Below, piece after piece: positions 17,624-56,400 of a stretch of 64,000 nt of DNA. This stretch comes from a virus. Its lineage: Duplodnaviria > Heunggongvirae > Uroviricota > Caudoviricetes. The DNA lies in IMG/VR virus record IMGVR_UViG_2671180676_000004, positions 1 through 64,000 of that record; one strand, 5' to 3'. Position numbers and translations under genes: made by a program. Position 1 is the first letter of the stretch; every line of letters begins with the position of its first letter. Below the pieces are notes generated by a model. It made no database searches. It was not told where the DNA came from and saw only the letters and a program-made list of their open reading frames with translations.

Positions 17624-18193
17624 ATGGATGTGATGGAAACCCAGAACCAACAAACAAAACCTCTGAATAACATTTATGCGTGGATTCTAGCGTTCATGCC
17701 TTTCTTCTTTGGAGTATCGCCGGAAGAGTATACCAATTACGCTATTATAATTGGGGGTGTAACTACCATCGGTTTGTTAGTAGCTGACAGAATGGCTCTA
17801 TCGGAGTCTGGCTGTGAACCACCTTCAATTCTATGGGGGGTATTCCTCCTGCCTGTCTATCTCTGGAAGCGCGCGACTATTACAAAAGGCAGCAGAGTGC
17901 CATTTATCATAATCGTTGCGTCGCTGGCTTGGGTTATCTTCATCGGCATCCCACACAAGGACGAGGTTGCTCTTGAAGAAGCAGCCTGCCCTCTCGTGAC
18001 AACTATTCTGAAAGAGAATAACGGTTCGACTGCACCAAAATGTATGAAGGTGACAATAGAGGACAAGGTGACGGATAAGTTCTATAGAGCAACGGCTACA
18101 CTAGACAATGGTAATGACATTAACATTACTCTGGAACTTACCGGCGACAGGAACTTCTACGTCCGTGTTCCAAATGTTTATCTGAACAACTAA
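17624..18193 (+). CDS. Membrane protein with four predicted TM helices and a soluble C-terminal domain
   Basis: Hydrophobic segments IYAWILAFMPFFF, AIIIGGVTTIGLLV, ILWGVFLLPVYLW, FIIIVASLAWVIFIGI; alternative start 17633. Confidence 0.5.
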   Translation: MDVMETQNQQTKPLNNIYAWILAFMPFFFGVSPEEYTNYAIIIGGVTTIGLLVADRMALSESGCEPPSILWGVFLLPVYLWKRATITKGSRVPFIIIVASLAWVIFIGIPHKDEVALEEAACPLVTTILKENNGSTAPKCMKVTIEDKVTDKFYRATATLDNGNDINITLELTGDRNFYVRVPNVYLNN

Positions 18194-18289
18194 CGGTTGC
18201 AACTCATTGATAATGGCGGTCACAATTTGATTCTTTTCTATAAGAATCCGTTGATCGCCACTACTCCCCTTCCATACCCGCAATCACAT

Positions 18290-19100
18290 CCTTAAATATC
18301 AATAAGTTATAGTTGTTTATACAATCAAGAAAACAACTGAATAACAGATCAACGAAACATCAACGCTTTCACCCGATTTGGTCTAAAAAATTGACGTTTT
18401 CACACATCACTGCTTATACCCGTAATTCTACGCAGCAGACAGCGCCACAGCGTCCAATTTTCACCACAGACGACCCAACACACTACCAACAAAAACACAC
18501 GCTCAAAATCGTTCCCGTTGCGTTACATAACCATATAAACAACTTATTTCAGGCATAACAAAACAACTAAATAACACATATGCCATTCCCAAAACAACCA
18601 ACCTCTTTATGGCAGGCTACCGAAAAGACCCACCTCTTCTTCCCAGGCTACCGGACAACCAACCTAACTTTCACAGGCAATCCGAAAACATTCATACGCG
18701 CGATACCCACGACACGCCATTACCCAAACAGCGAAGAAACATCAGAATCACTGAAACCCCAACGAAGCCTGTAACCGCAAGGTTTCTCTCAATCCCAAAA
18801 GACACGAAACATAACAATCACGGGAAACGCCATTACCCAATACACGAATAACTACAAAAGCCCTTCACGCACTCCAGACAAACAACTCAAACACAATAAC
18901 GAAAGGAATCGCCCACCTGCCATTACTCCATACACGGAGAAGAACAATCACCAAAACGACGAGAACACCCCATAGAAGAACCACCGCAAAACGAACGAAA
19001 CCATTTACACCGACAGAGAGAACAACACGCCCAATTCACCAACAGAAATAGTCGCCGTATAGAACGTTCTGGAAGGAGTGAGCATTAACGCCTATAGAGA
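18290..19100 (+). repeat. A+C-rich, G+T-poor strand-skewed region with degenerate tandem repeats
   Basis: Repeated units such as acgccattacccaa(a/t)ac… and caggctaccg…; track ORFs here have implausible Thr/Pro/His/Gln-rich translations. Confidence 0.5.
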
Positions 19101-19261: not shown

Positions 19262-19395
19262 CAGGGAAAAGGTTGCATCCCGCTACAGAAACGGCTGGGT
19301 TGCCTTCGGGGAACGGCTGGAGGTTTTCAGGGAAACGGTCGAGTTGCCTGTGTGGATTTCGGGAAAAGGCTCGATGCCGGTTCAGGAACGGCGGC
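19262..19395. repeat. Iteron-like direct repeat array (GGGAAAcGGc)
   Basis: Six copies (gggaaaagg, agaaacgg, gggaacgg, gggaaacgg, gggaaaagg, ggaacgg) spaced about 21-24 bp, one gap about 31 bp. Confidence 0.45.
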
Positions 19396-20676: not shown

Positions 20677-21072
20677 ATGACCGTTAAACGCGAAAAACTG
20701 ACAGTTGATGTTTACTATGCCTCTGAAACCGCCGAAGGTAAGAATGTGGCAAAAATCACCGTTGTTACGTACAACACCGAAACTGGTGCCGAAGTCCAGG
20801 CCAGTACGATCGTGCGTAAAGGTGACGCCTCCGGCGGCGAGTACGCGACTCAATACCAGTCCATTCTCGATGCAACTGACCCGCTGCTGCTGAAAATCGA
20901 GAACTACTTCCGCCAGGTTGATGAAGAGGTGTTTGAAACCATGATGAATATGGTTAACACCGTATTCGCCTCCAGCCTGAACACCAGCACCACCTGGATT
21001 GGCCAGTACGGTCTGCGCATTACCTCTGGCATTCCTGCCGACACCTTAATCCCTGAAAGCGTATTCGCTTAA
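20677..21072 (+). CDS. Hypothetical protein (131 aa)
   Basis: ATG 20677 with SD GGAG; bracketed by intrinsic terminators. Confidence 0.5.
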   Translation: MTVKREKLTVDVYYASETAEGKNVAKITVVTYNTETGAEVQASTIVRKGDASGGEYATQYQSILDATDPLLLKIENYFRQVDEEVFETMMNMVNTVFASSLNTSTTWIGQYGLRITSGIPADTLIPESVFA

Positions 21073-21081
21073 TCCTCTTTA

Positions 21082-21108
21082 AATGGCGCGTAAACCGCGC
21101 CATTTTAT
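21082..21108 (+). terminator. Intrinsic terminator
   Basis: aatggcgcg-taaac-cgcgccatt + TTATTA. Confidence 0.7.
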
Positions 21109-21118
21109 TATGCCCGAT

Positions 21119-21131
21119 AACAATTTGTTTT
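21119..21131 (+). promoter_or_regulatory. Motif A variant (aacaatttgtttt)
   Basis: Upstream of ATG 21154/21190. Confidence 0.35.
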
Positions 21132-21189
21132 CTGCCTTATCAGATTTGTGAAAATGATTTCACTGAAGCAACTTAATAAGGAAACCATC

Positions 21190-21564
21190 ATGGGACTTGA
21201 TATCTATATCGAGACACAGCCTAAAAACGATCTGAATAACGAGGCATCCAGAAAGCAGGTTGCTTACTTCCGTAAGTTCAATGCGCTCGTTGGGTGGATG
21301 GAGCGCAACGTAGGTGAAGTCGAAAATTGTGAGCTTTTAGAATTAACGATGAATGACATTTGTCTTCTGAAAGCTCATTTGATGCACATAAACGAAAGCA
21401 ATTGCGAAGAGTACTTGCCTACTCGGGAAGGTTTTTTCTTCGGCAGTCAGGAGTACGACGAAGGTTACTGGCATGACGTGGATAAGCTGAAAAAACTTGT
21501 GGAAGACCTGATCAGGAACCACGACTTTCACAATAACAGACTGACCTTCTGCGCCTGGTGGTAA
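21190..21564 (+). CDS. Hypothetical protein (124 aa)
   Basis: ATG 21190 with SD AAGGA; in-frame alternative ATG 21154 lacks an SD. Confidence 0.45.
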   Translation: MGLDIYIETQPKNDLNNEASRKQVAYFRKFNALVGWMERNVGEVENCELLELTMNDICLLKAHLMHINESNCEEYLPTREGFFFGSQEYDEGYWHDVDKLKKLVEDLIRNHDFHNNRLTFCAWW

Positions 21565-21566
21565 AT

Positions 21567-21710
21567 ATGGGCGATTTCAAGAAACGCCTGAAGGAAAGAG
21601 CCGAGATGGTCAGAAAGCAAAACGCCTCTTCTGTCATCAGATACGCAAGGCAGTTTAGTCGCAACAACAAATCAGTTGAGGAAAAGATCCTTAGCGTAAT
21701 CGGTCGATAA
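21567..21710 (+). CDS. Possible coupled small ORF (47 aa)
   Basis: ATG 2 nt after upstream stop (MGDFKKRLKERAEMVRKQNASS…); followed by hairpin 21716-21741. Confidence 0.25.
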   Translation: MGDFKKRLKERAEMVRKQNASSVIRYARQFSRNNKSVEEKILSVIGR

Positions 21711-21715
21711 TTATT

Positions 21716-21741
21716 AAGGCCATCAGCATTGATGGCCTTAA
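21716..21741. terminator. Perfect 8-bp-stem hairpin (ggccatca-gcat-tgatggcc)
   Basis: Perfect stem but no T-run, so terminator function uncertain. Confidence 0.35.
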
Positions 21742-21764
21742 ATGACCATCCTGTTTCCCGCAGG

Positions 21765-21850
21765 CTAAAAACACCAACCTCTTACCTCCAGGCAACCGAC
21801 AAACCCACCTGTTCCCGTCCGGCTACCGCAACTTTCCACTTTGACGCCTT
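21765..21850. repeat. Repeat related to 18590-18680
   Basis: accaacctctt…caggc(a/t)accg(a)ca(a)acccacct… shared between the two loci. Confidence 0.45.
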
Positions 21851-21879
21851 ATTCGTACAACGATAATTAACACCAATAA

Positions 21880-21893
21880 GAAAACAATTTGTT
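21880..21893 (+). promoter_or_regulatory. Motif A palindrome
   Basis: gaaaacaatttgtt, 22 nt before ATG 21915. Confidence 0.45.
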
Positions 21894-21914
21894 ATTTACG
21901 ATAAGGAATTAATC

Positions 21915-22397
21915 ATGAATTTTATCGCTACTGTAAACGCACCCGCACATGGCAATATCGCTGTAACGTTCTCTGACATTGAAAAACGAGTACTTGGTGC
22001 ATGGCGCGACAATGAGACGGTAGAACTGTCAGCACAAGAAAAATGCATTATTGCACGCGACATCATTGGCAATCGTCGTTACTCGCGGGTATTTGAGAAA
22101 GCGTATGTGGTAAATTCTGGATTCGGAACGTTCGTCTTTCCGGTGCGCTCCGGGCGATTCTGCCAGTCCAAGCTGATTGAGTTCGCTACGCAGATTTCTG
22201 TCTGGATTAAAACTCAATCGTCGTTCAAATTTTCCGACGATGAAGCAGTATCGCAGGGGATGCGGATCGCCAACAATGCGATTAAATGCAAAAACATTAC
22301 GTATACCGCTGGCGTTGACACATGGAAACTGTTTTGCGCTAACTTTATGCTGAATGTATACGCAAGCAACCGCATCCACATCCTTGATGGCGTGTAA
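21915..22397 (+). CDS. Hypothetical protein (160 aa)
   Basis: ATG 21915 with SD AAGGA. Confidence 0.5.
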   Translation: MNFIATVNAPAHGNIAVTFSDIEKRVLGAWRDNETVELSAQEKCIIARDIIGNRRYSRVFEKAYVVNSGFGTFVFPVRSGRFCQSKLIEFATQISVWIKTQSSFKFSDDEAVSQGMRIANNAIKCKNITYTAGVDTWKLFCANFMLNVYASNRIHILDGV

Positions 22398-22404
22398 CTG
22401 AGAA

Positions 22405-22428
22405 GAGGGCCAGAAACGGCCCTTTATC
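22405..22428 (+). terminator. Terminator-like hairpin (gagggcc-agaaac-ggccctt)
   Basis: Stem-loop right after the stop of 21915..22397; weak T tract. Confidence 0.45.
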
Positions 22429-22440
22429 TATAGCCACCAG

Positions 22441-22525
22441 CTGCCGCAGGGAAATTTTCAGAAACGGCGAGGAACGTATTCATGAGCCGACGGGGAACGG
22501 CCAGGATTTTTTCGGGAAACGGCTG
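22441..22525. repeat. Second iteron-like block (GGGAAAcGGc-type repeats)
   Basis: cagggaaa, cagaaacggcg, aggaacg, ggggaacggcc, cgggaaacggctg. Confidence 0.4.
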
Positions 22526-22987
22526 CATTCGCCTTTATGTAGAAAAAACATCGGGAAGCTGGTGGAATCCAACCAGCGGTTGTCGGACAGGTGAGCGGGG
22601 AAAATTATGATGACTTTCGTCACCTGAGACATCCAGATTTCTTTCGTAGCATAATTACATACGTGATTAAGTGGTGTGATTATGTGAAAAATCACGCGCA
22701 CATAATACGCGAGCGGATACGGAACAAAACAAAATGCCGATCCGCGCCGACAAATAAACGCGGATCATAAAGCAAGACTAAAAGCCAATGATTAACCATA
22801 CTCTATAGCGCAATATAACGCGTTTTAAGCGCGTTAATGTGTTAAGTAATGGGTATGTACTGGTAAGGATATAAAAGCGCGTCTATGGCGTTATTTTGGC
22901 GCTTATTTTTATGTTGTTGGAGTGAGTTAAAGACAATAAAAAACGCGCTAATGATGGCGCGTTATGGTGGGAGTATTGGAAACGAAA

Positions 22988-23006
22988 AAAGCGCCCATAG
23001 TGGGCG
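22988..23006. terminator. Bidirectional hairpin (agcgccca-tag-tgggcgct)
   Basis: On the minus strand it is followed by TTTTTT, so likely terminates the minus-strand operon ending at 23014. Confidence 0.6.
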
Positions 23007-23013
23007 CTCGATT

Positions 23014-23244
23014 TTATTTGTGTAAACTGATTTTAAATCCCATTTCTACAAACGCTTTTAACATTAAAAATATATCAGCGTCGTTCACGTCTGCTTTTTT
23101 TCGCTCCTGGTCGCTCAATAAGTCAATTTTGCGCGTCGTTTCATCTATAAGCTCGACTGCGCGCCCAGCGTAACCAGCGATCCCAGCGATGCGATTAACA
23201 TAATATTCATTATGGACGTTAACGCCAGCGATAAGAACAAACAT
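23014..23244 (-). CDS. Hypothetical protein (76 aa)
   Basis: ORF in the AT-rich cassette. Confidence 0.4.
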   Translation of the reverse strand: MFVLIAGVNVHNEYYVNRIAGIAGYAGRAVELIDETTRKIDLLSDQERKKADVNDADIFLMLKAFVEMGFKISLHK

Positions 23245-23263
23245 GATTAAGCTCCTTAAAAAA

Positions 23264-23467
23264 TTAAATAGAATTTTGAAGTTTTCCGATTAATGCGCTT
23301 AAACGTAAGTATTCACGTTTACGCTTGCAATCTCGCTTGCTGTTAAGCAAATCAGAAAACGTAAAATTTAATTGGTCGCGTTGCGCGATCAAATCATCGA
23401 TTAATTCCAGTTTATAAGCGCGATACTTTGCGCGATATTCCGCGCGGATCTTGTCATAGCTGACCAT
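23264..23467 (-). CDS. Hypothetical protein (67 aa)
   Basis: ATG 23467 with SD AGGAG; track ORF trimmed because its upstream part overlaps the hairpin. Confidence 0.4.
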   Translation of the reverse strand: MVSYDKIRAEYRAKYRAYKLELIDDLIAQRDQLNFTFSDLLNSKRDCKRKREYLRLSALIGKLQNSI

Positions 23468-23488
23468 TTTTAAAGCTCCTTTAAAGCG

Positions 23489-23507
23489 CCCACTATGGGC
23501 GCTTGAT
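23489..23507. repeat. Inverted copy of the 22988-23006 hairpin
   Basis: agcgccca-cta-tgggcgct, reverse complement of the first copy. Confidence 0.5.
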
Positions 23508-23515
23508 TCCATTAA

Positions 23516-24166
23516 TTACGCTTTGAAAGCATCAGCTAAATAATTGTAGAAATCATTTTTAATGAAGCGATATTGCTGAGTACCAGCTTTCGCACTCCCA
23601 GCTCCTTTGACTTTTTCAACAAGTCCAAGACGTTCGCAAAGATTGATCAACTGGTTGGCTTGAGTATAGCCAGCGTCCAATTTAATTTCACACGCTTTTT
23701 TAGCTTCATTCATTAAATCGAAAACAGCGCCATTGGTGAACGTGTCGATCTCGTCGTTAATCATATCGATTAAAGCGAATACACGAGATCCAGACATATC
23801 AGCGATGGAATAAACGCATTTACCAGATTTAATTGATTTAACCAGATAAACCAGTTTTTCCAGAGAATAACTATTAGTCATTGCATCACGAAAAAATACT
23901 TCTGGCGCTTGTTTGCTTGCTTTAATCGCATAGTAGAAAACAGAGCATAATTTTTCGTCTTCTACTGCGTTTACGACGTTGTTGATGAAGTAAGCAAGTT
24001 TAGTGGTCGCAGCTTGCATATTTGCTTTGTCTGCTTTAGTGTGCGTACCATTTTTATAATGTTCGTTATATGTTTGAGTTGCCAGATCTGCTTTTTCGCG
24101 CAGTTCATCGGATACAATGGAAGCAGCTTCAATGATGGATTTTTTAGAAATGATAATGTTAGCCAT
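23516..24166 (-). CDS. Hypothetical protein (216 aa)
   Basis: ORF in AT-rich DNA; no recognisable motif. Confidence 0.5.
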   Translation of the reverse strand: MANIIISKKSIIEAASIVSDELREKADLATQTYNEHYKNGTHTKADKANMQAATTKLAYFINNVVNAVEDEKLCSVFYYAIKASKQAPEVFFRDAMTNSYSLEKLVYLVKSIKSGKCVYSIADMSGSRVFALIDMINDEIDTFTNGAVFDLMNEAKKACEIKLDAGYTQANQLINLCERLGLVEKVKGAGSAKAGTQQYRFIKNDFYNYLADAFKA

Positions 24167-24449
24167 GATAATTTTTCCTTATGTAAATTTAAAATTTATT
24201 GTCGTTAGCGTCTTCGCTTTCGACGAGTTCAATTATCGATACGCGAAAAAAGATTGCAAGTGTTTTTTTAAAATTTTTTGCAGGGATGAAAGTCCTAGAA
24301 ATAAAAGCGAGATCGTCGAAGGTGTTCCCTAAATAAATAATCGATTCCGGCTTTCGACCTTATATATATTTAGATTATTTGATTTATAGATATAAAGAAG
24401 TGATGTGAAAAATAATAACCGGACTTAGCCGGTTATTAACCTTATAGAT

Positions 24450-24758
24450 TTATTGAACAGACTCTACAGCCTTACGATTGGTGTCAAATAGCGCATCAAC
24501 GAACTGTGCCGATGACTCGCTAGATTCGCAATCCAACATTGCCCGTTCTTCATTTGCCACTTTCTTACACAGTTCCACATTCTCACCTATCGCTTTTCCT
24601 GCTTTTACGGCTGCCGAAAATTGATACATGCAAACTGATACATTCTGAGACGTTGAGCACACGTCATTCATCAGCGACTGAATGACAGGCTTATAGTCCA
24701 TTGCATTTGCCGCAACTGAGCAAAGTAAAAATAATGGTGGTAACAATATCGATTTCAT
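24450..24758 (-). CDS. Secreted Cys-containing small protein (102 aa)
   Basis: N-terminal signal peptide MKSILLPPLFLLCSVAANA; four later Cys. Confidence 0.5.
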   Translation of the reverse strand: MKSILLPPLFLLCSVAANAMDYKPVIQSLMNDVCSTSQNVSVCMYQFSAAVKAGKAIGENVELCKKVANEERAMLDCESSESSAQFVDALFDTNRKAVESVQ

Positions 24759-24761
24759 AAC

Positions 24762-25286
24762 TCAAAAAGGCAAAATTCGTTCAACCCAATCGAACAAAAC
24801 AACTATTTTTCTACCGTTCTCGACACGTAGTGTAACCTGACAAGCATCTGCGCCTGCTGACACCCCCTCAATTTCACGGCCATCCGCCATGTACACCCTT
24901 ATAGATTTGTTTGCTTTGTAGGCTTGGTTGCAAATTGCAAAAAAATCGCGGCGTGATGGCCGATTATCGACATAATCAGGGTGAACTGTTAGTCGACCTT
25001 TGAAATCGTGAGCGATACTGTCAACCACACCTGATTCAATTGTACTAATGCGTTCAAGTGGGAGCCTTATACGATTTTCTTTGTCAAAAGGGGCTGGGCA
25101 AAGGTCAACTTTGTTACGAGATGGCATGAGGCCATAAACGTACATGCAAAACGCCTGGCCATCTTCGAGAGTGACCCTTACAGGAATTTGTTCTCTGCGC
25201 CAGAACATCAGTAGTTTTTCAACGTTAGTGTAATCTCGCGGCCAGAGTTCAGCTTGGATACCGTAGGTAATATCTTTGGTTGTCAT
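24762..25286 (-). CDS. Hypothetical protein (174 aa)
   Basis: Start set at MTTKD to avoid overlap with the upstream lipoprotein gene. Confidence 0.45.
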   Translation of the reverse strand: MTTKDITYGIQAELWPRDYTNVEKLLMFWRREQIPVRVTLEDGQAFCMYVYGLMPSRNKVDLCPAPFDKENRIRLPLERISTIESGVVDSIAHDFKGRLTVHPDYVDNRPSRRDFFAICNQAYKANKSIRVYMADGREIEGVSAGADACQVTLRVENGRKIVVLFDWVERILPF

Positions 25287-25290
25287 GTCA

Positions 25291-25713
25291 TCACAGAGTT
25301 GTTGGCAGAATGTCGATGTCACCAGAATTGCTGGTGAACACCCTGAACGCTTTTGTGTCTCCATTCTTCAGAGTCGTTTCTCGCTCTTGACGAGCGGGGT
25401 TTAGAGCACATAAACCTGCACCTTCAAGAGATGCACCCACAATTAATTCTCCGGCATTTAAATGGAAAGTCGCTTTTTCGCCTGTAGCCAGTTTTGCGAC
25501 AGTTTCGCCGTTGATGAAAATGGAAGCATCACATCCAGCTCCTACAAAACCTGTGTCTCTCATTACCACCAACGTAGCTGGCGCTGCGCTTTGATACTTG
25601 AACACTTTGGCCTGCGGTGCTGGTTTGGCGTCATGGATTGATATTGGGCGTGATTGGCACGCGGTAAGCATCAACACTGGTAACGTTAGTAGAGGGAGAA
25701 GCGAGTATTTCAT
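25291..25713 (-). CDS. Putative lipoprotein (140 aa)
   Basis: Signal peptide with lipobox MKYSLLPLLTLPVLMLTAC. Confidence 0.5.
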   Translation of the reverse strand: MKYSLLPLLTLPVLMLTACQSRPISIHDAKPAPQAKVFKYQSAAPATLVVMRDTGFVGAGCDASIFINGETVAKLATGEKATFHLNAGELIVGASLEGAGLCALNPARQERETTLKNGDTKAFRVFTSNSGDIDILPTTL

Positions 25714-25781
25714 GATAGTTTTAGAACAGAAAGTGAACAGTATGGGAGACTTCATCTTTGTCTCCCTAATTGATAGCGTGA

Positions 25782-26060
25782 TTATTTTAATCTGCTTAAT
25801 AGCGTTTCGAGATCTTCCTTTGTCATATTAGAGTTCTCATAGATACGCATGATTTTCTCACGAGTCTTAGCGGAAGCCCCGACAGAAGATATAACCTTGT
25901 CAAAGTCGGCCATTGTCAATTGTTCCAGAATGGTATTTATGACTTCAGCCTTAGACATTTTGATATTTTTTTCTTTTAGTTTCACTTGAAACTTTCCAAG
26001 TTTGTCATTGGCCTTATCAGACAATGCTACCTGACAATAAGTTGTTTTCTTTTCGCTCAT
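25782..26060 (-). CDS. Hypothetical protein (92 aa)
   Basis: ORF 2 nt downstream of the helicase gene. Confidence 0.45.
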   Translation of the reverse strand: MSEKKTTYCQVALSDKANDKLGKFQVKLKEKNIKMSKAEVINTILEQLTMADFDKVISSVGASAKTREKIMRIYENSNMTKEDLETLLSRLK

Positions 26061-53444: not shown

Positions 53445-56400
53445 ATGTGGTACAGGGAAGGTACTATCACATTTACACAGGGTAGCAATACTCTGGTTGG
53501 GGCAGGGACAGCCTGGAACGTAACAGCTAATGGTGTGTTGCCGGGGATGATCGTCATTGGCCCCGACAATAAGCTGTATGAGATCAAGCGCGTAATAAGC
53601 GATACGAATATTGTTCTCTCAGAACCTTATACCGGCGAAACTCAGTCTGAGGTTCCGTGCCGAATCATTACGACCTATGAAGGCGACTTAACACAGTTTA
53701 GCGCGCGCTTTACAGCACTAATGTCGCGTATGTCGGCTGATTCCAAGTCTATGCGCAGTTGGTTGACTGCTCTGGATGAGGTGACAATCGAGCGTGAAGA
53801 CGGTACAGAAGTAACCGTTAAGCCGCTAATGCAGATCGTCAACGAGCACAACGAAAACGTTGAGTGGTATAAAAATAACACTGACGCGATTGATGCTGCT
53901 GGCGACAAAGCTCGTGAGGCGGCGGCCAGTGCTGCCGCAGCAGCAGAAAGCGCCAATACCGCTGGAGAAAAAGCCTCTCAAGCGTCTCAAAGTGCATCCG
54001 CTGCGGCATCCTCACAAAGTGCCGCAAGTGCGAGTGCAACTGCTGCGAAAAAATCTGAAACGAATGCCGCAGCGTCACAACAATCAGCAGCCACTTCTGC
54101 ATCCACCGCGACCACGAAAGCGTCAGAAGCTGCCACCTCAGCCCGGGATGCGGCGGCCTCAAAAGAGGCAGCGAAATCATCAGAAACGAGCGCAGCCTCG
54201 AGCGCCAGTAATGCCGCTTCCTCGGCAACGGCGGCAGGAAATTCCGCGAAGGCGGCAAAAACGTCCGAGACGAACGCCAGGTCTTCTGAAACGGCAGCGG
54301 GACAGAGCGCCTCGGCTGCGGCAGGCTCAAAAACAGCGGCTGCGTCGTCTGCCAGTGCCGCGTCAACAAGTGCCGGGCAGGCCTCAGCCAGTGCCACCGC
54401 CGCCGGAAAATCGGCAGAAAGTGCCGCATCGTCTGCTTCAACAGCCACAACGAAGGCTGGCGAAGCCACTGAACAGGCCAGCGCAGCAGCGAGGTCTGCT
54501 TCCGCAGCGAAGACATCCGAAACGAACGCGAAAGCGTCGGAAACCCGTGCAGAATCCTCAAAAACGGCAGCCGCATCGTCCGCCAGTTCGGCAGCGTCAT
54601 CGGCATCATCGGCGTCTGCTTCAAAAGATGAGGCGACCAGACAAGCGTCCGCAGCGAAGGGCAGCGCCACGACAGCATCCACGAAAGCAACAGAGGCGGC
54701 AGGCAGTGCGACGGCAGCATCTCAGAGCAAAACTGCTGCTGAATCCGCTGCGACCCGTGCGGAAGCTGCTGCTGATCGTGCTGAAGAGATTGCCGGTGCA
54801 GTTGCGATGGAAGATGCAAGCCTTACCACCAAAGGTGTTGTGAAACTTAGCAGTGCTGTCGACAGCACCAGTGAATCTTTAGCCGCGACACCAAAAGCAG
54901 TTAAGACCGCATATGATAATGCTGAAAAACGACTACAGAAGGATCAGAATGGTGCTGATATCCCCGACAAGGGCCGCTTCCTGAATAACATTAATGTTTA
55001 CAGCAAAGGTGAAGTGGATCAGAAAAAGGGGATGCGATACGTTGTGGTCAATGCCCCGGCGGGTGTCCAGGAAGGTAAATATTATCCGTTAGTGATAAAA
55101 AGGAATGACAGCCATCGGGCATCCCGCGTTGTCATTTCAACGCCAAGTCGCACAGCTAATCACAGAATGAATAACTGTGAGTTTAATGGTTTTGTTTGCG
55201 CAGGCGGCTGGACGGACCGGGGTAGCTATGCCTGTGGTATGTTCTGGGCTTATTCATCATCGGAACGCGCTATTCATTCCATTCTGATGAGTAATAAAGG
55301 CGATACCGTAGACAGCGTATTCTATATAGAAGGTGGGGCATTTCCCGTAGAGGTCTTTTTAGAAGAAGGACTTTCTGTTACTGCTCCTGCTTCTGATTAT
55401 GTTGTTGCTGAAACGACTTATAAATTTGGCGCAACTGATCCTTATTCTGAATCAGTTGCGGTAAATTTAATTTTAGATTTTAAACAAGGTAATGGATTTT
55501 ATAGTTCGTATCCTGTTTTGAGTAAGTCAGACATTAGCGGTAATAAGGTTTACGCTAATGATGAAGTTATTGTCCGTAGTCAGAATGCGTTAAGGATGAT
55601 TGCTGGCGATTACGGTGTCATATGGCGAAATGATGGAGCAAATACTTACTTGCTCATGACTGATAAAGGCGACCAGTACGGTGGCTGGAACGGTCTTCGA
55701 CCATTTGCAGTAAATAACGCAACAGGTGAAGTGACGATCAATACACCACTTAATTCTCCAAAAGGGGTTAAGGGGAACTCTGATACAGCTACGAAACTTC
55801 AGACTGCAAGAAAAATATCCGGTGTTCCATTTGATGGCTCTACTGATATCACTTTAACCGCCGCGCATGTTGCCGCTTTCGCAAGAAGAGCAACAGGGTC
55901 ATATGCTGATGCTGATGGCGGCGTGCCGTGGAATGCTGAATCTGGTGCTTATAATGTAACTAGAACGGGCGACAGTTATATTCTTGCCAACTTTTATACT
56001 GGTGTAGGTAGTTGCCGTACGCTTCAAATTAAGGCTCACTATAAAAATGGTGGGTTGTTTTATCGTTCATCTCGCGATGGAAGTGGTTTTGAAAGTGGTT
56101 GGGAGCAGGTTTACACGACTGGATTTAGACCTCAGCCGGCTGATATAAACGCACCAACCGCTGCCGCCGGATGGTTAAATAGTGGTAACGGAACAGCATT
56201 TACGACTGCTCAGTTTATAACGTGGCTAAATAATCAGGGTGCATTTTCAAACAAATATTGGATTGCACGGTGCTCATGGACTTACGCCAACAATAATTAT
56301 ATAGACGACACTGGATGTGGCAGGATCGATCTATCTGGTTCCGTGATTGAGGTGTTTAGTAATAAGTCAACAAGCCACTACACTATTCGTGTTACAACGA

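Follow-up and report, generated by a model that had tools for sequence, protein, structure and literature searches.

The most AT-rich segment in the 64,000 nt analysed here of an SSU5-like phage-plasmid is probably a single conserved minus-strand operon, in which copies of one GC-rich hairpin serve as terminator and intercistronic stem-loop and small genes are exchanged between them. The locus is an ordinary feature and not a foreign insert, the kinds of component found in it are all known, and no current concept is changed by it.

Setting and anatomy of the probable operon

Clinical Enterobacteriaceae widely carry SSU5-like phage-plasmids, most of whose genes lack annotation. The window, meaning the whole 64,000-nt stretch of DNA analysed, belongs to such an element: positions 22400–24460 have a 100% match in the 111-kb plasmid NZ_CP157149.1, and 769 plasmid records, 62 of them from Yersinia pestis, contain matches. 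GC content falls to 0.377 between 22600 and 24450, whereas the window averages 0.463 (sd 0.029 for stretches of equal size); only 0.08% of same-size windows are as GC-poor, and no other segment of that length in the window is as AT-rich. The 216-aa gene has the lowest GC3 (0.336) among the 44 ORFs of at least 120 aa. Terminator-like hairpins number 12 in 21800–25500, compared with 3.8 ± 2.0 in shuffled sequences, and lie mostly in 22690–23010. A preliminary description of the sequence had noted the AT-richness, the many short hairpins, and two small minus-strand genes between hairpins with a 216-aa gene beyond them; the contrast in composition and the excess of hairpins are real, and all three ORFs are present.

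Read along the minus strand, a conserved upstream region is followed by a sigma70-like promoter, the 216-aa gene, a hairpin, a 67-aa gene, a 76-aa gene, and the same hairpin again with a T-run, past which lies a convergent 160-aa gene. A helicase and an FljA-like gene are also found in the neighbourhood. The features are listed below in this order (window coordinates):

24413..24438, minus strand: terminator-like hairpin belonging to the 102-aa gene upstream (dG −12.6 kcal/mol, z −4.2), marking the 5′ limit of the transcription unit
24286..24367, minus strand: conserved AT-rich upstream region, with boxes A–C near-invariant in alignments
24358-24367, minus strand: box A, ATATATAAGG, candidate regulator-binding site
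24318-24337, minus strand: box B, TTTATTTAGGGAACACCTTC, candidate regulator-binding site, unique in the window
24286-24300, minus strand: box C, TTCTAGGACTTTCAT, candidate regulator-binding site
24232..24259, minus strand: sigma70-like promoter TTGCAA-N16-GATAAT with an A-tract ahead, from a sequence scan; predicted operon promoter
23516..24166, minus strand: 216-aa gene, core to the SSU5-like phage-plasmids
23485..23503, minus strand: internal hairpin copy, sense-strand loop TAG, without a U-tract (d-score −16); putative intercistronic stem-loop
23473..23485, minus strand: TTTAAAGGAGCTT, the box for ribosome binding ahead of the 67-aa gene, marking the 5′ limit of the exchangeable cassettes
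23264..23467, minus strand: 67-aa accessory gene (phrog_6145), restricted to SSU5-like elements; its product is a charged helical/coiled-coil peptide
23014..23244, minus strand: 76-aa accessory gene, allele a (phrog_1585), with a tentative ACT/ferredoxin-like fold
22984..23008, minus strand: terminal hairpin copy followed by TTTTTT, sense-strand loop CTA; by its sequence the intrinsic terminator of the operon (dG −15.6 kcal/mol, z −4.3, d-score +29)
22942..22963, minus strand: second, back-up terminator-like hairpin AACGCGC-N8-GCGCGTT with a T-run (z −4.2), conserved across relatives
22738-22767, minus strand: GC-cored hairpin in non-coding spacer, lineage-specific and not conserved in the SSU5 clade
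22695-22711, minus strand: GC-cored hairpin in non-coding spacer, lineage-specific and not conserved in the SSU5 clade

The sigma70-like promoter, behind the AT-rich control region, would drive the 216-aa gene. Boxes A–C are invariant in locus alignments even where the 216-aa homologues share only 33–54% identity, the CTTG(C/A) −35 element and A-run are invariant in the alignment of relatives, and the 24413..24438 hairpin is kept in SSU5 and Cyrano, both of which lack the 102-aa gene. Box B, which resembles the SP6 and K11 promoters, was rejected as a promoter for a phage single-subunit RNA polymerase, as its motif occurs once in 64 kb. The GRAACGGC repeats are unlikely to be the plasmid origin, the plasmid's RepB-family initiator being ~70 kb away. 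RNA-seq of the Cyrano lysogen shows practically no expression of the operon, with CYRAN_112 and CYRAN_113, the orthologues of the small genes, at the expression floor in LB (PMC9928086 S1 Table).

The 216-aa protein is predicted to be a winged-helix DNA-binding protein. Its model comprises an N-terminal helical bundle and a C-terminal domain in which a helix-turn-helix is followed by a β-hairpin wing, superposing structurally on known members of the fold class; that it binds DNA would follow from this fold. Unlike the ArsR/SmtB, MarR, PadR and TubR/AspA-like winged-helix proteins, it has no sequence-level family membership: searches of Pfam, NCBIfam and PDB sequences gave no match, and none was found for the N-terminal ~120-residue helical domain. 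The family is tiny, an exhaustive HMMER search with its profile recovering 23 cluster representatives among 1.84 billion proteins, and the examined loci of four full-length divergent matches (P0097, P0104 and P0106 for the 216-aa gene, P0185 for the 76-aa gene) share the same syntenic context. The gene occurs in 815 plasmid records, with per-genus counts nearly equal to those of the neighbouring helicase, and in essentially every enterobacterial plasmid that has this helicase. It remains syntenic in relatives of 33–54% identity and is AT-rich in all of them; being core, syntenic and AT-rich throughout, it was not recently acquired. Together with its conserved control region, the protein is a candidate regulator of the lytic programme.

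One hairpin in two contexts

The hairpin reads AGCGCCCA-TAG-TGGGCGCT at 22990–23008 and AGCGCCCA-CTA-TGGGCGCT at 23485–23503, two matches in 64 kb where shuffled sequences predict 0.02, and neither the remaining window nor the remainder of the 111-kb NZ_CP157149.1 contains a further AGCGCCCA-N3-TGGGCGCT copy. The preliminary description had placed the pair at 22988 and 23489, 2–4 nt off, and had called the copies reverse complements. Their loops are indeed opposite; the stem, however, is a perfect palindrome, so that only the 3-nt loop is flipped.

Both copies are stable GC-rich stem-loops just past a stop codon, as in intrinsic terminators, with an 8-bp stem (dG −13.6 kcal/mol) and a short loop; the internal copy lies 9 nt from the stop of the 216-aa gene and the terminal copy 5 nt from that of the 76-aa gene. 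What follows the stem is different in each. The terminal copy has the U-tract of an intrinsic terminator, its 3′ tail TTTTTTCG scoring 4.2. The tail of the internal copy, TTTAAAGGAG, scores 1.7; lacking a U-tract, this copy is therefore not classed as a terminator. A ribosome-binding site lies directly 3′ of it, with 19 nt from hairpin to ATG. The same division holds in relatives: nearly all of 83 terminal copies (one exception) have a T5-6CGTTTC-type tail, with a mean tail score of 4.2, while 73/73 internal copies have weak T tails, always followed by ...TTTAAGGAG/GAT, with a mean score of 1.6.

The two hairpins would be paralogous copies of one stem-loop in two contexts. The terminal copy, with its U6, would act as an intrinsic terminator, shutting off the operon ahead of the convergent 160-aa gene. 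The internal copy, placed between cistrons without a U-run like known intercistronic stem-loops, would most likely serve as a pause, a weak attenuator or a 3′ mRNA stabiliser for the 216-aa cistron; stem-loops of this kind can set differential expression or protect the upstream mRNA. These terminating, attenuating and stabilising activities are suggested by sequence features.

Unlike ordinary intrinsic terminators, a single operon has two copies of the identical 19-nt element, whose stem sequence stays constant over wide divergence, including relatives with no more than 62% identity in the 216-aa protein. Such invariance exceeds what structure alone needs, and could reflect concerted evolution between the copies or sequence-specific recognition. 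Two distant homologues (L204, L205) have a hairpin of other sequence with T7-8 at the equivalent place; there, structure and position are therefore conserved rather than sequence. The same stem also forms the gene-end terminator in unrelated phage contigs without the 216-aa family. Tandem arrays of the palindrome at 44-nt spacing, found in two other contigs, L115 and L152, that are 72 and 107 kb long, carry T-runs and may be read as stacked terminators.

Among 160 hairpin copies of relatives, the sense-strand loop is CTA in 127 and TAG in 19, and most hairpin pairs are therefore direct repeats; the inverted arrangement does not mark a boundary, as had been proposed, and the TAG of the window is a recurrent loop flip. 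The frequency of flips looks high, these figures being counts and not a rate. Flips occur in at least 5 cluster-and-site combinations among relatives at least 98.5% identical, rarer loops are likewise paired as reverse complements (TTG/CAA, TTA/TAA, TCA/TGA), and the second terminator, AACGCGC-N8-GCGCGTT, shows them too. Inversion of the whole inter-hairpin segment was rejected as the cause, since the genes stay co-oriented and one loop only is flipped. Inversion of hairpin loops by template switching (quasipalindrome mutation) is documented (PMC8794818, PMC7202029), and the present case resembles it in the exact reverse complementation of the loop, the unchanged stem and the independent recurrence in close relatives; it differs in affecting the terminator hairpins of a phage-plasmid. 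The inverted look of the pair would be the expected product of such switching within the hairpin.

A variable slot behind a core gene

The region 3′ of the 216-aa gene is a slot for small accessory genes, here those of 67 and 76 aa. The 67-aa gene begins at the ATG at 23467, which has the ribosome-binding site AAGGAG; an 82-aa ORF call crosses the hairpin. A second copy of TTTAAAGGAGCTT at 23249–23261 precedes the 76-aa gene, and these two are the only copies within 1 mismatch in the window. In plasmid records the 67-aa gene is found 517 times and the 76-aa gene 374 times, corresponding to ~63% and ~46% of plasmids with the 216-aa gene; the 76-aa gene also occurs in Salmonella plasmids of ~106 kb. 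Across 83 related loci the slot is empty or is filled by the 67-aa gene alone, the 76-aa gene alone, the two together, or a pair of 76-aa alleles, giving 0–2 genes from three families or alleles. In near-identical relatives the slot is taken by a second 76-aa allele (46–51% identity), and L019 and L024 have both alleles, each followed by its own hairpin.

The edges of the exchange are sharp. Compared with L012 and L023, identity is 88–100% up to the ribosome-binding box, 40–65% across the 76-aa ORF, and ~90–100% from the hairpin on; the breakpoints of allele replacement are the shared ribosome-binding box and the hairpin. These breakpoints suggest that recombination, homologous or by template switching, takes place between the recurring hairpins and ribosome-binding boxes, and would delete, duplicate or replace the small genes, because the same hairpin and the same box recur at the cassette edges. 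The cassettes were seen at this one locus only, and a chromosomal copy lies in the same FljA-like context.

Searches of Pfam, NCBIfam and PADLOC returned nothing significant for either small protein, DUF6899 reaching E 0.023 with the 67-aa product and a model of the acetolactate synthase small subunit E 0.046 with that of 76 aa, and PADLOC was equally negative for the 216-aa protein. PHROGs gave families of unknown function only, plus one mis-named family; PDB sequence searches gave no match, and a Foldseek search of BFVD nothing at E≤0.001. The ACT/ferredoxin-like fold of the 76-aa protein is tentative, its model having low confidence (pLDDT 65). A propagated annotation at this locus, ‘CorA/MIT transporter’, is untenable.

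Alternative readings and significance

The preliminary description had proposed that the AT-rich segment was a separately acquired module. Its low GC and GC3, and the variation among relatives of the genes between the hairpins, would fit a horizontally acquired island whose ends are marked by inverted hairpins, and the inter-hairpin DNA did prove to be a variable slot. The hairpins, however, bracket only 476 nt, leaving out the 216-aa gene and the upstream region, the most AT-rich parts. The comparison across relatives separates the two: the small genes are patchy, while the 216-aa gene is found wherever the neighbouring helicase is, in synteny and AT-rich down to 33–54% identity. Genomic islands are patchy in presence and have mobility genes or repeats at both ends; here patchiness is limited to the small genes, the block as a whole showed neither a mobility gene nor a target-site duplication nor an empty site, and in most relatives the hairpins are direct copies. 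The pair looks like a terminator and an intercistronic stem-loop rather than the two termini of a mobile element. Acquisition of the whole block is largely refuted, and is very unlikely. The atypical composition recalls morons, which also have their own promoter and terminator and are expressed in the lysogen; overall the locus does not qualify as one, and the promoter scan found no promoter belonging to the small genes.

It is similarly improbable that the 19-bp palindromes act as duplex DNA, forming an operator, roadblock or centromere-like site for a dimeric protein, most plausibly the 216-aa product, with the hairpin incidental. Perfect 8-bp half-sites around a freely variable 3-bp spacer, a stem invariant down to 62% protein identity, a winged-helix protein gene immediately upstream, and the tandem arrays of L115 and L152 would all suit such a site. 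Yet every copy lies just 3′ of a stop codon, the last one nearly always with a sense-strand T-run, the arrays have T-runs as well, and the same stem ends genes in unrelated phages without the 216-aa family; moreover, the putative recognition helix (TQ..Q....ERLGL) persists in distant homologues, whose downstream hairpin has another sequence. That the hairpins are single-strand recombination sites of a dedicated enzyme mobilising the small genes, in the manner of integron attC, IS200/IS605 or REP/RAYT, is more improbable still. The cassette-like layout of gene plus hairpin, with 0–2 cassettes and a tandem two-cassette form, recalls such systems, but no integrase, HUH transposase or RAYT adjoins the locus, and the only site-specific integrase annotated in ~53 kb of pUTAK-6-1 (1–50,000; 108,000–111,466) is >50 kb off. 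Whereas attC sites are imperfect hairpins of 57–141 nt, accompanied in integrons by an adjacent IntI, attI and Pc, the present element is a perfect 19-nt palindrome; REP/RAYT and IS200/IS605 elements come in many copies, compared with two in 111 kb. The cassettes were also seen at this locus only, the chromosomal copy in its FljA-like context included, and their 5′ breakpoint is the ribosome-binding box and not the hairpin. A MITE was rejected alongside these candidates.

Small RNAs encoded in 22600–22990, with some hairpins as their terminators, would be compatible with the operon reading but are unlikely. The spacer offers ~400 nt without a credible ORF, has 4–5 terminator-like hairpins, and is partly conserved across relatives; an Rfam scan of 21000–26000 at E≤1 gave two sub-threshold matches only, bxd_5 and isrK, at ~20 bits (isrK 19.9 bits, E 0.45). 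Against this, no Rfam family reached its gathering score, conservation in the SSU5 clade does not extend past the first two hairpins, the scan gave no convincing promoters, and d-scores are mostly negative.

A close parallel is known from T4-type phages, whose promoter-early stem-loops (PeSLs) bring about modular shuffling (Arbiol et al. 2010, PMC2839356; Comeau et al. 2014, PMC4122927). In both, small genes without known function occupy a plastic spot and are flanked by repeats of a short regulatory motif that includes a terminator stem-loop, and insertion, deletion and replacement have their breakpoints at this motif. PeSLs combine a stem-loop with a sigma70 early promoter; here the linker is a hairpin with a ribosome-binding box, the 19 nt to the ATG leaving no room for a promoter, and none was predicted. 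There is also a single slot of 0–2 genes, compared with the numerous hyperplastic regions served by PeSLs, and the element is a phage-plasmid and not a T4-like virus; mini-circles are a feature of PeSLs. It is a rather unlikely, if arguable, extension of the operon reading that hairpin and box form a dedicated PeSL-like linker for plugging small host-takeover or anti-defence genes in and out behind the conserved and tightly controlled winged-helix regulator gene, with the stem kept because recombination acts on it, or because a protein or RNA recognises it, and not merely as a terminator.

As a probable operon with exchangeable small genes, the locus is a tidy instance of known mechanisms. For annotation, the start of the 67-aa gene is corrected and a misleading transporter name dropped, while attention is drawn, in SSU5-like phage-plasmids, to a core and strongly regulated protein that is predicted to bind DNA and whose control region is highly conserved. 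For their evolution, it provides a compact natural example of cassette exchange at repeated regulatory motifs, together with recurrent loop inversion.

The minus-strand operon and its control region

The region 22400-24460 is a 100% match to E. coli plasmid pUTAK-6-1 (NZ_CP157149.1, 111,466 bp), and it also matches the phages CMS-2020a, PhiR41_1, Cyrano and SSU5 and a further 769 plasmid records, which come from Klebsiella, Escherichia, Enterobacter, Yersinia and Salmonella; the window is thus an SSU5-type phage-plasmid. All genes of the studied segment are 'hypothetical' in the matching records.

Features of the operon and its surroundings
24450-24758 (-): 102-aa gene preceding the operon; signal peptide (MKSILLPPLFLLCSVAANA); phrog_9536
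24438-24413 (-): hairpin belonging to the 102-aa gene
24167-24449: AT-rich spacer (283 nt) between the 102-aa and 216-aa genes, containing a sigma70-like promoter
24259-24232 (-): predicted sigma70-like promoter, TTGCAA-N16-GATAAT
24166-23516 (-): 216-aa gene
23485-23503: internal hairpin, 9 nt past the 216-aa stop codon, UUUAAAGGAGCUUUAAAAAUG directly after
23467-23264 (-): 67-aa gene
23244-23014 (-): 76-aa gene
22990-23008: terminal hairpin, 5 nt past the 76-aa stop codon, then UUUUUUCGUUUCC
22963-22942 (-): further hairpin with T-run (second terminator)
22767-22738 and 22711-22695 (-): further hairpins
Beyond these hairpins: convergent 160-aa gene with its own terminator, 22408-22425

UUUAAAGGAGCUUUAAAAAUG supplies the 67-aa gene with its ribosome-binding site and start codon, and a second copy of the ribosome-binding box (UUUUAAGGAGCUUAAUCAUG) lies ahead of the 76-aa gene, the only other place in the window where it occurs. 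An 82-aa ORF call is a longer version of the 67-aa gene that spans the hairpin; the annotations of SSU5 and PhiR41_1 have the gene at 67 aa.

Three boxes, A-C, lie 5' of the promoter at fixed spacing (ATATATAAGG, TTTATTTAGGGAACACCTTC and TTCTA(A/G)GACTTT), and alignments revealed them to be near-invariant even in loci whose protein is only 33% identical. Box B occurs once in the window, and a regulator may bind at all three, which makes them candidate sites. An inverted repeat, TTCGACGA / TCGTCGAA (24220-24229 and 24314-24322, minus strand, ~85 nt apart), brackets the predicted promoter and is only partly conserved in relatives (TTCGA/TCGAA), and GAACAC-containing motifs are found in both the upstream box B and the 5' UTR; the repeat and these motifs may represent operator half-sites.

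Several neighbouring features were also observed. A 200-aa FljA-like protein (24762-25364, minus strand; Pfam Flag1_repress PF03614, E 2.5e-84; weak Hfq-domain match, E 0.001) is encoded by a gene that adjoins the 216-aa gene in all relatives, and a flagellin mRNA repressor homologue as a core phage-plasmid gene may merit separate study. The 102-aa gene, placed between the FljA-like stop codon and the conserved hairpin 24413-24438, is inserted here when compared with SSU5, Cyrano and PhiR41_1, and so is a second small variable cassette adjoining the segment. Two plus-strand clusters of GRAACGGC / GGAAACGG repeats, at 22413-22523 (4 copies) and 19288-19392 (3-5 copies), resemble an iteron-type array of protein-binding sites. 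GRAACGGC-type repeats number 11 in the window, where 4.25 ± 2.0 would be expected, and elsewhere in the plasmid there are just two isolated copies; the 22413-22523 cluster is kept in every SSU5-like clade, reaching 7-8 copies in the distant relative L204, and a RepB-family initiator lies ~70 kb from the clusters.

Roles and orientation of the hairpin pair

The hairpin reads AGCGCCCA-TAG-TGGGCGCT at 22990-23008 and AGCGCCCA-CTA-TGGGCGCT at 23485-23503. No third match to the pattern exists in the 64 kb with two mismatches permitted (shuffles give 0.02), nor are there copies in the other 47 kb of pUTAK-6-1. A tail and d-score calculation after d'Aubenton-Carafa 1990, whose values are indicative only, scores the terminal copy at +29 and the internal one at -16. 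This rule extends to 83 related loci, where the last copy nearly always carries a T5-6CGTTTC-type tail (one exception; mean tail score 4.2), and 73/73 internal copies precede the next gene's ribosome-binding site (mean tail score 1.6). Distant 216-aa homologues carry a hairpin of other sequence plus T7-8 at the equivalent position (ACGCGCC-N6-GGCGCGT in L204, AGCCCACT-N6-AGTGGGCT in L205), and the identical stem is found at gene ends in unrelated phage contigs. Together, these observations suggest that the terminal copy is the operon's intrinsic terminator and the internal copy an intercistronic stem-loop, acting as a pause or weak attenuator, or protecting the 3' end of the 216-aa mRNA.

The palindromes could instead be sites bound as duplex DNA by the 216-aa protein, a predicted winged-helix protein; this reading is favoured by an invariant stem beside a variable spacer, but opposed by their strict placement after stop codons with T-runs, by use of the palindrome in unrelated phages, and by the other hairpins of distant homologues that retain the recognition helix. 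It is also possible that small RNAs are encoded in the left spacer.

Elsewhere, the identical hairpin AGCGCCCATAGTGGGCGCT forms tandem series of 2-3 copies, spaced at 44 nt, in two IMG/VR contigs (72 and 107 kb; L115:8080-8142, L152:1497-1603), an A/T run with each copy giving the look of stacked terminators. With a different loop (CCA, AAA or TTT), this 8-bp stem also lies at gene ends in viral contigs of 22-46 kb that belong to two unrelated groups (L085, L088, L100, L105, L114, L158; and L091, L092, L106, L126, L128, L138, L147), and is either a recurrent terminator solution or has spread horizontally.

The preliminary description treated the hairpins as inverted copies marking the boundary of an element. 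Their loops are indeed reverse-complementary, but with a perfectly palindromic stem the inversion reduces to the 3-nt loop. Among 160 hairpin copies of relatives the sense-strand loop is CTA in 127 and TAG in 19, at either position, and flips distinguish loci 99.4-99.8% identical in the adjacent gene, in at least 5 cluster-and-site combinations. The orientation gives no evidence of an element boundary. Rarer loops likewise form reverse-complement pairs (TTG/CAA, TTA/TAA, TCA/TGA). The loop of the second terminator (22942-22963 and homologous positions in relatives) flips too (atcatt/aatgat, attgtt/aacaat), so that loop inversion is general among the hairpins of this region. Loop inversion is a signature of intra-hairpin template switching (PMC8794818), which these flips would seem to record.

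A conserved AT-rich gene and an exchangeable slot

The segment 22600-24450 had been described as AT-rich and packed with hairpins, and both impressions hold: GC is 0.377, where stretches of that size average 0.463 (sd 0.029) and practically none is lower, and terminator-like hairpins are enriched, with 12 over 21800-25500 vs 3.8 ± 2.0 in shuffles. GC is 0.307 in the spacer 24167-24449, 0.376 in the 216-aa gene, 0.387 and 0.403 in the two small genes, and 0.406 in the left spacer, while GC3 of the 216-aa gene (0.336) is the lowest of 44 ORFs (0.479 ± 0.064). The hairpin pair and compositional contrast are real and non-random. In every clade the 216-aa gene and the region upstream of it have a higher AT content than the locus around them (in L204, GC is 0.414 for the 216-family gene vs 0.530 for the locus), so AT-richness here is old and has been maintained. 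Unusual composition was also observed in the 1-kb profile at 18001-19000 (GC skew -0.33, AT skew +0.30) and 54001-55000 (GC 0.58, AT skew +0.31).

Separate acquisition, as previously proposed for the whole segment, does not fit the 216-aa gene, which is core and syntenic, or its control region. The gene is present in 815 plasmids (tblastn), and genus by genus its counts are almost the same as for the helicase next to it (Klebsiella 346/346, Yersinia 62/62, Salmonella 49/49, Enterobacter 91/92, Escherichia 217/229), and homologues of 33-54% identity share the gene order ParB_N, helicase, ~93-104-aa gene, FljA-like, 216-aa family, of which L204 covers only the helicase-to-216-family part. The proposal survives, refined, for the DNA between the hairpins, which is variable.

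Slot arrangements among related loci (76a, window allele; 76b, other allele)
hairpin only: about 11 loci
hairpin-67aa-hairpin: about 25 loci
hairpin-76aa-hairpin: about 18 loci
hairpin-67aa-76aa-hairpin (window type): about 20 loci
hairpin-76b-hairpin-76a-hairpin: 2 loci

The 67-aa gene is found in 517 plasmid records and the 76-aa gene, with two alleles of 46-51% identity, in 374. In two related loci, L012 and L023, identity with the window is 88-100% from the 216-aa gene through the hairpin and the 67-aa gene to the ribosome-binding box; it drops to 40-65% over precisely the 76-aa ORF and is back at ~90-100% from the terminal hairpin on. These breakpoints, the slot variants and the two-place box suggest an exchangeable unit of ribosome-binding box, small gene and hairpin, in which the repeated regulatory motifs (hairpin and box) would serve as recombination joints. 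Repeated regulatory motifs likewise act as joints in the PeSLs of T4-type phages (PMC2839356, PMC4122927), although the linker here lacks a promoter. Integron-like or HUH-type mobilisation of the small genes was rejected, as no enzyme was found next to the locus and there are two hairpin copies only, at one locus only.

Accessory proteins, expression and significance

The 67-aa protein is a charged helical peptide restricted to SSU5-like elements. Its SSU5 orthologue (SSU5_119, phrog_6145; orthologue of 23264-23467) is named 'MIT family metal ion transporter CorA', which is untenable for a 67-residue soluble charged peptide and found no support in any search; the name is a propagated mis-annotation. 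A weak model of the 76-aa protein (pLDDT 65) indicates an ACT/ferredoxin-like beta-alpha-beta-beta-alpha-beta unit.

In the Cyrano lysogen, 92.5% identical to the window over this region, CYRAN_113 and CYRAN_112 lie at the detection floor in LB (log2 2.3-2.8); at 6 h in macrophages they reach only ~5.6 and ~4.6, respectively (PMC9928086 S1 Table). This floor-level expression rules out a lysogeny or plasmid-maintenance function, and we infer that the operon comprises a lytic-cycle regulator and accessory genes.

The duplicated terminator stem-loop of this conserved AT-rich operon probably also serves as the joint at which small accessory genes are exchanged; the apparent inversion of the hairpin pair is a loop flip. 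The explanation is an ordinary one, providing a new example of already known kinds of feature.
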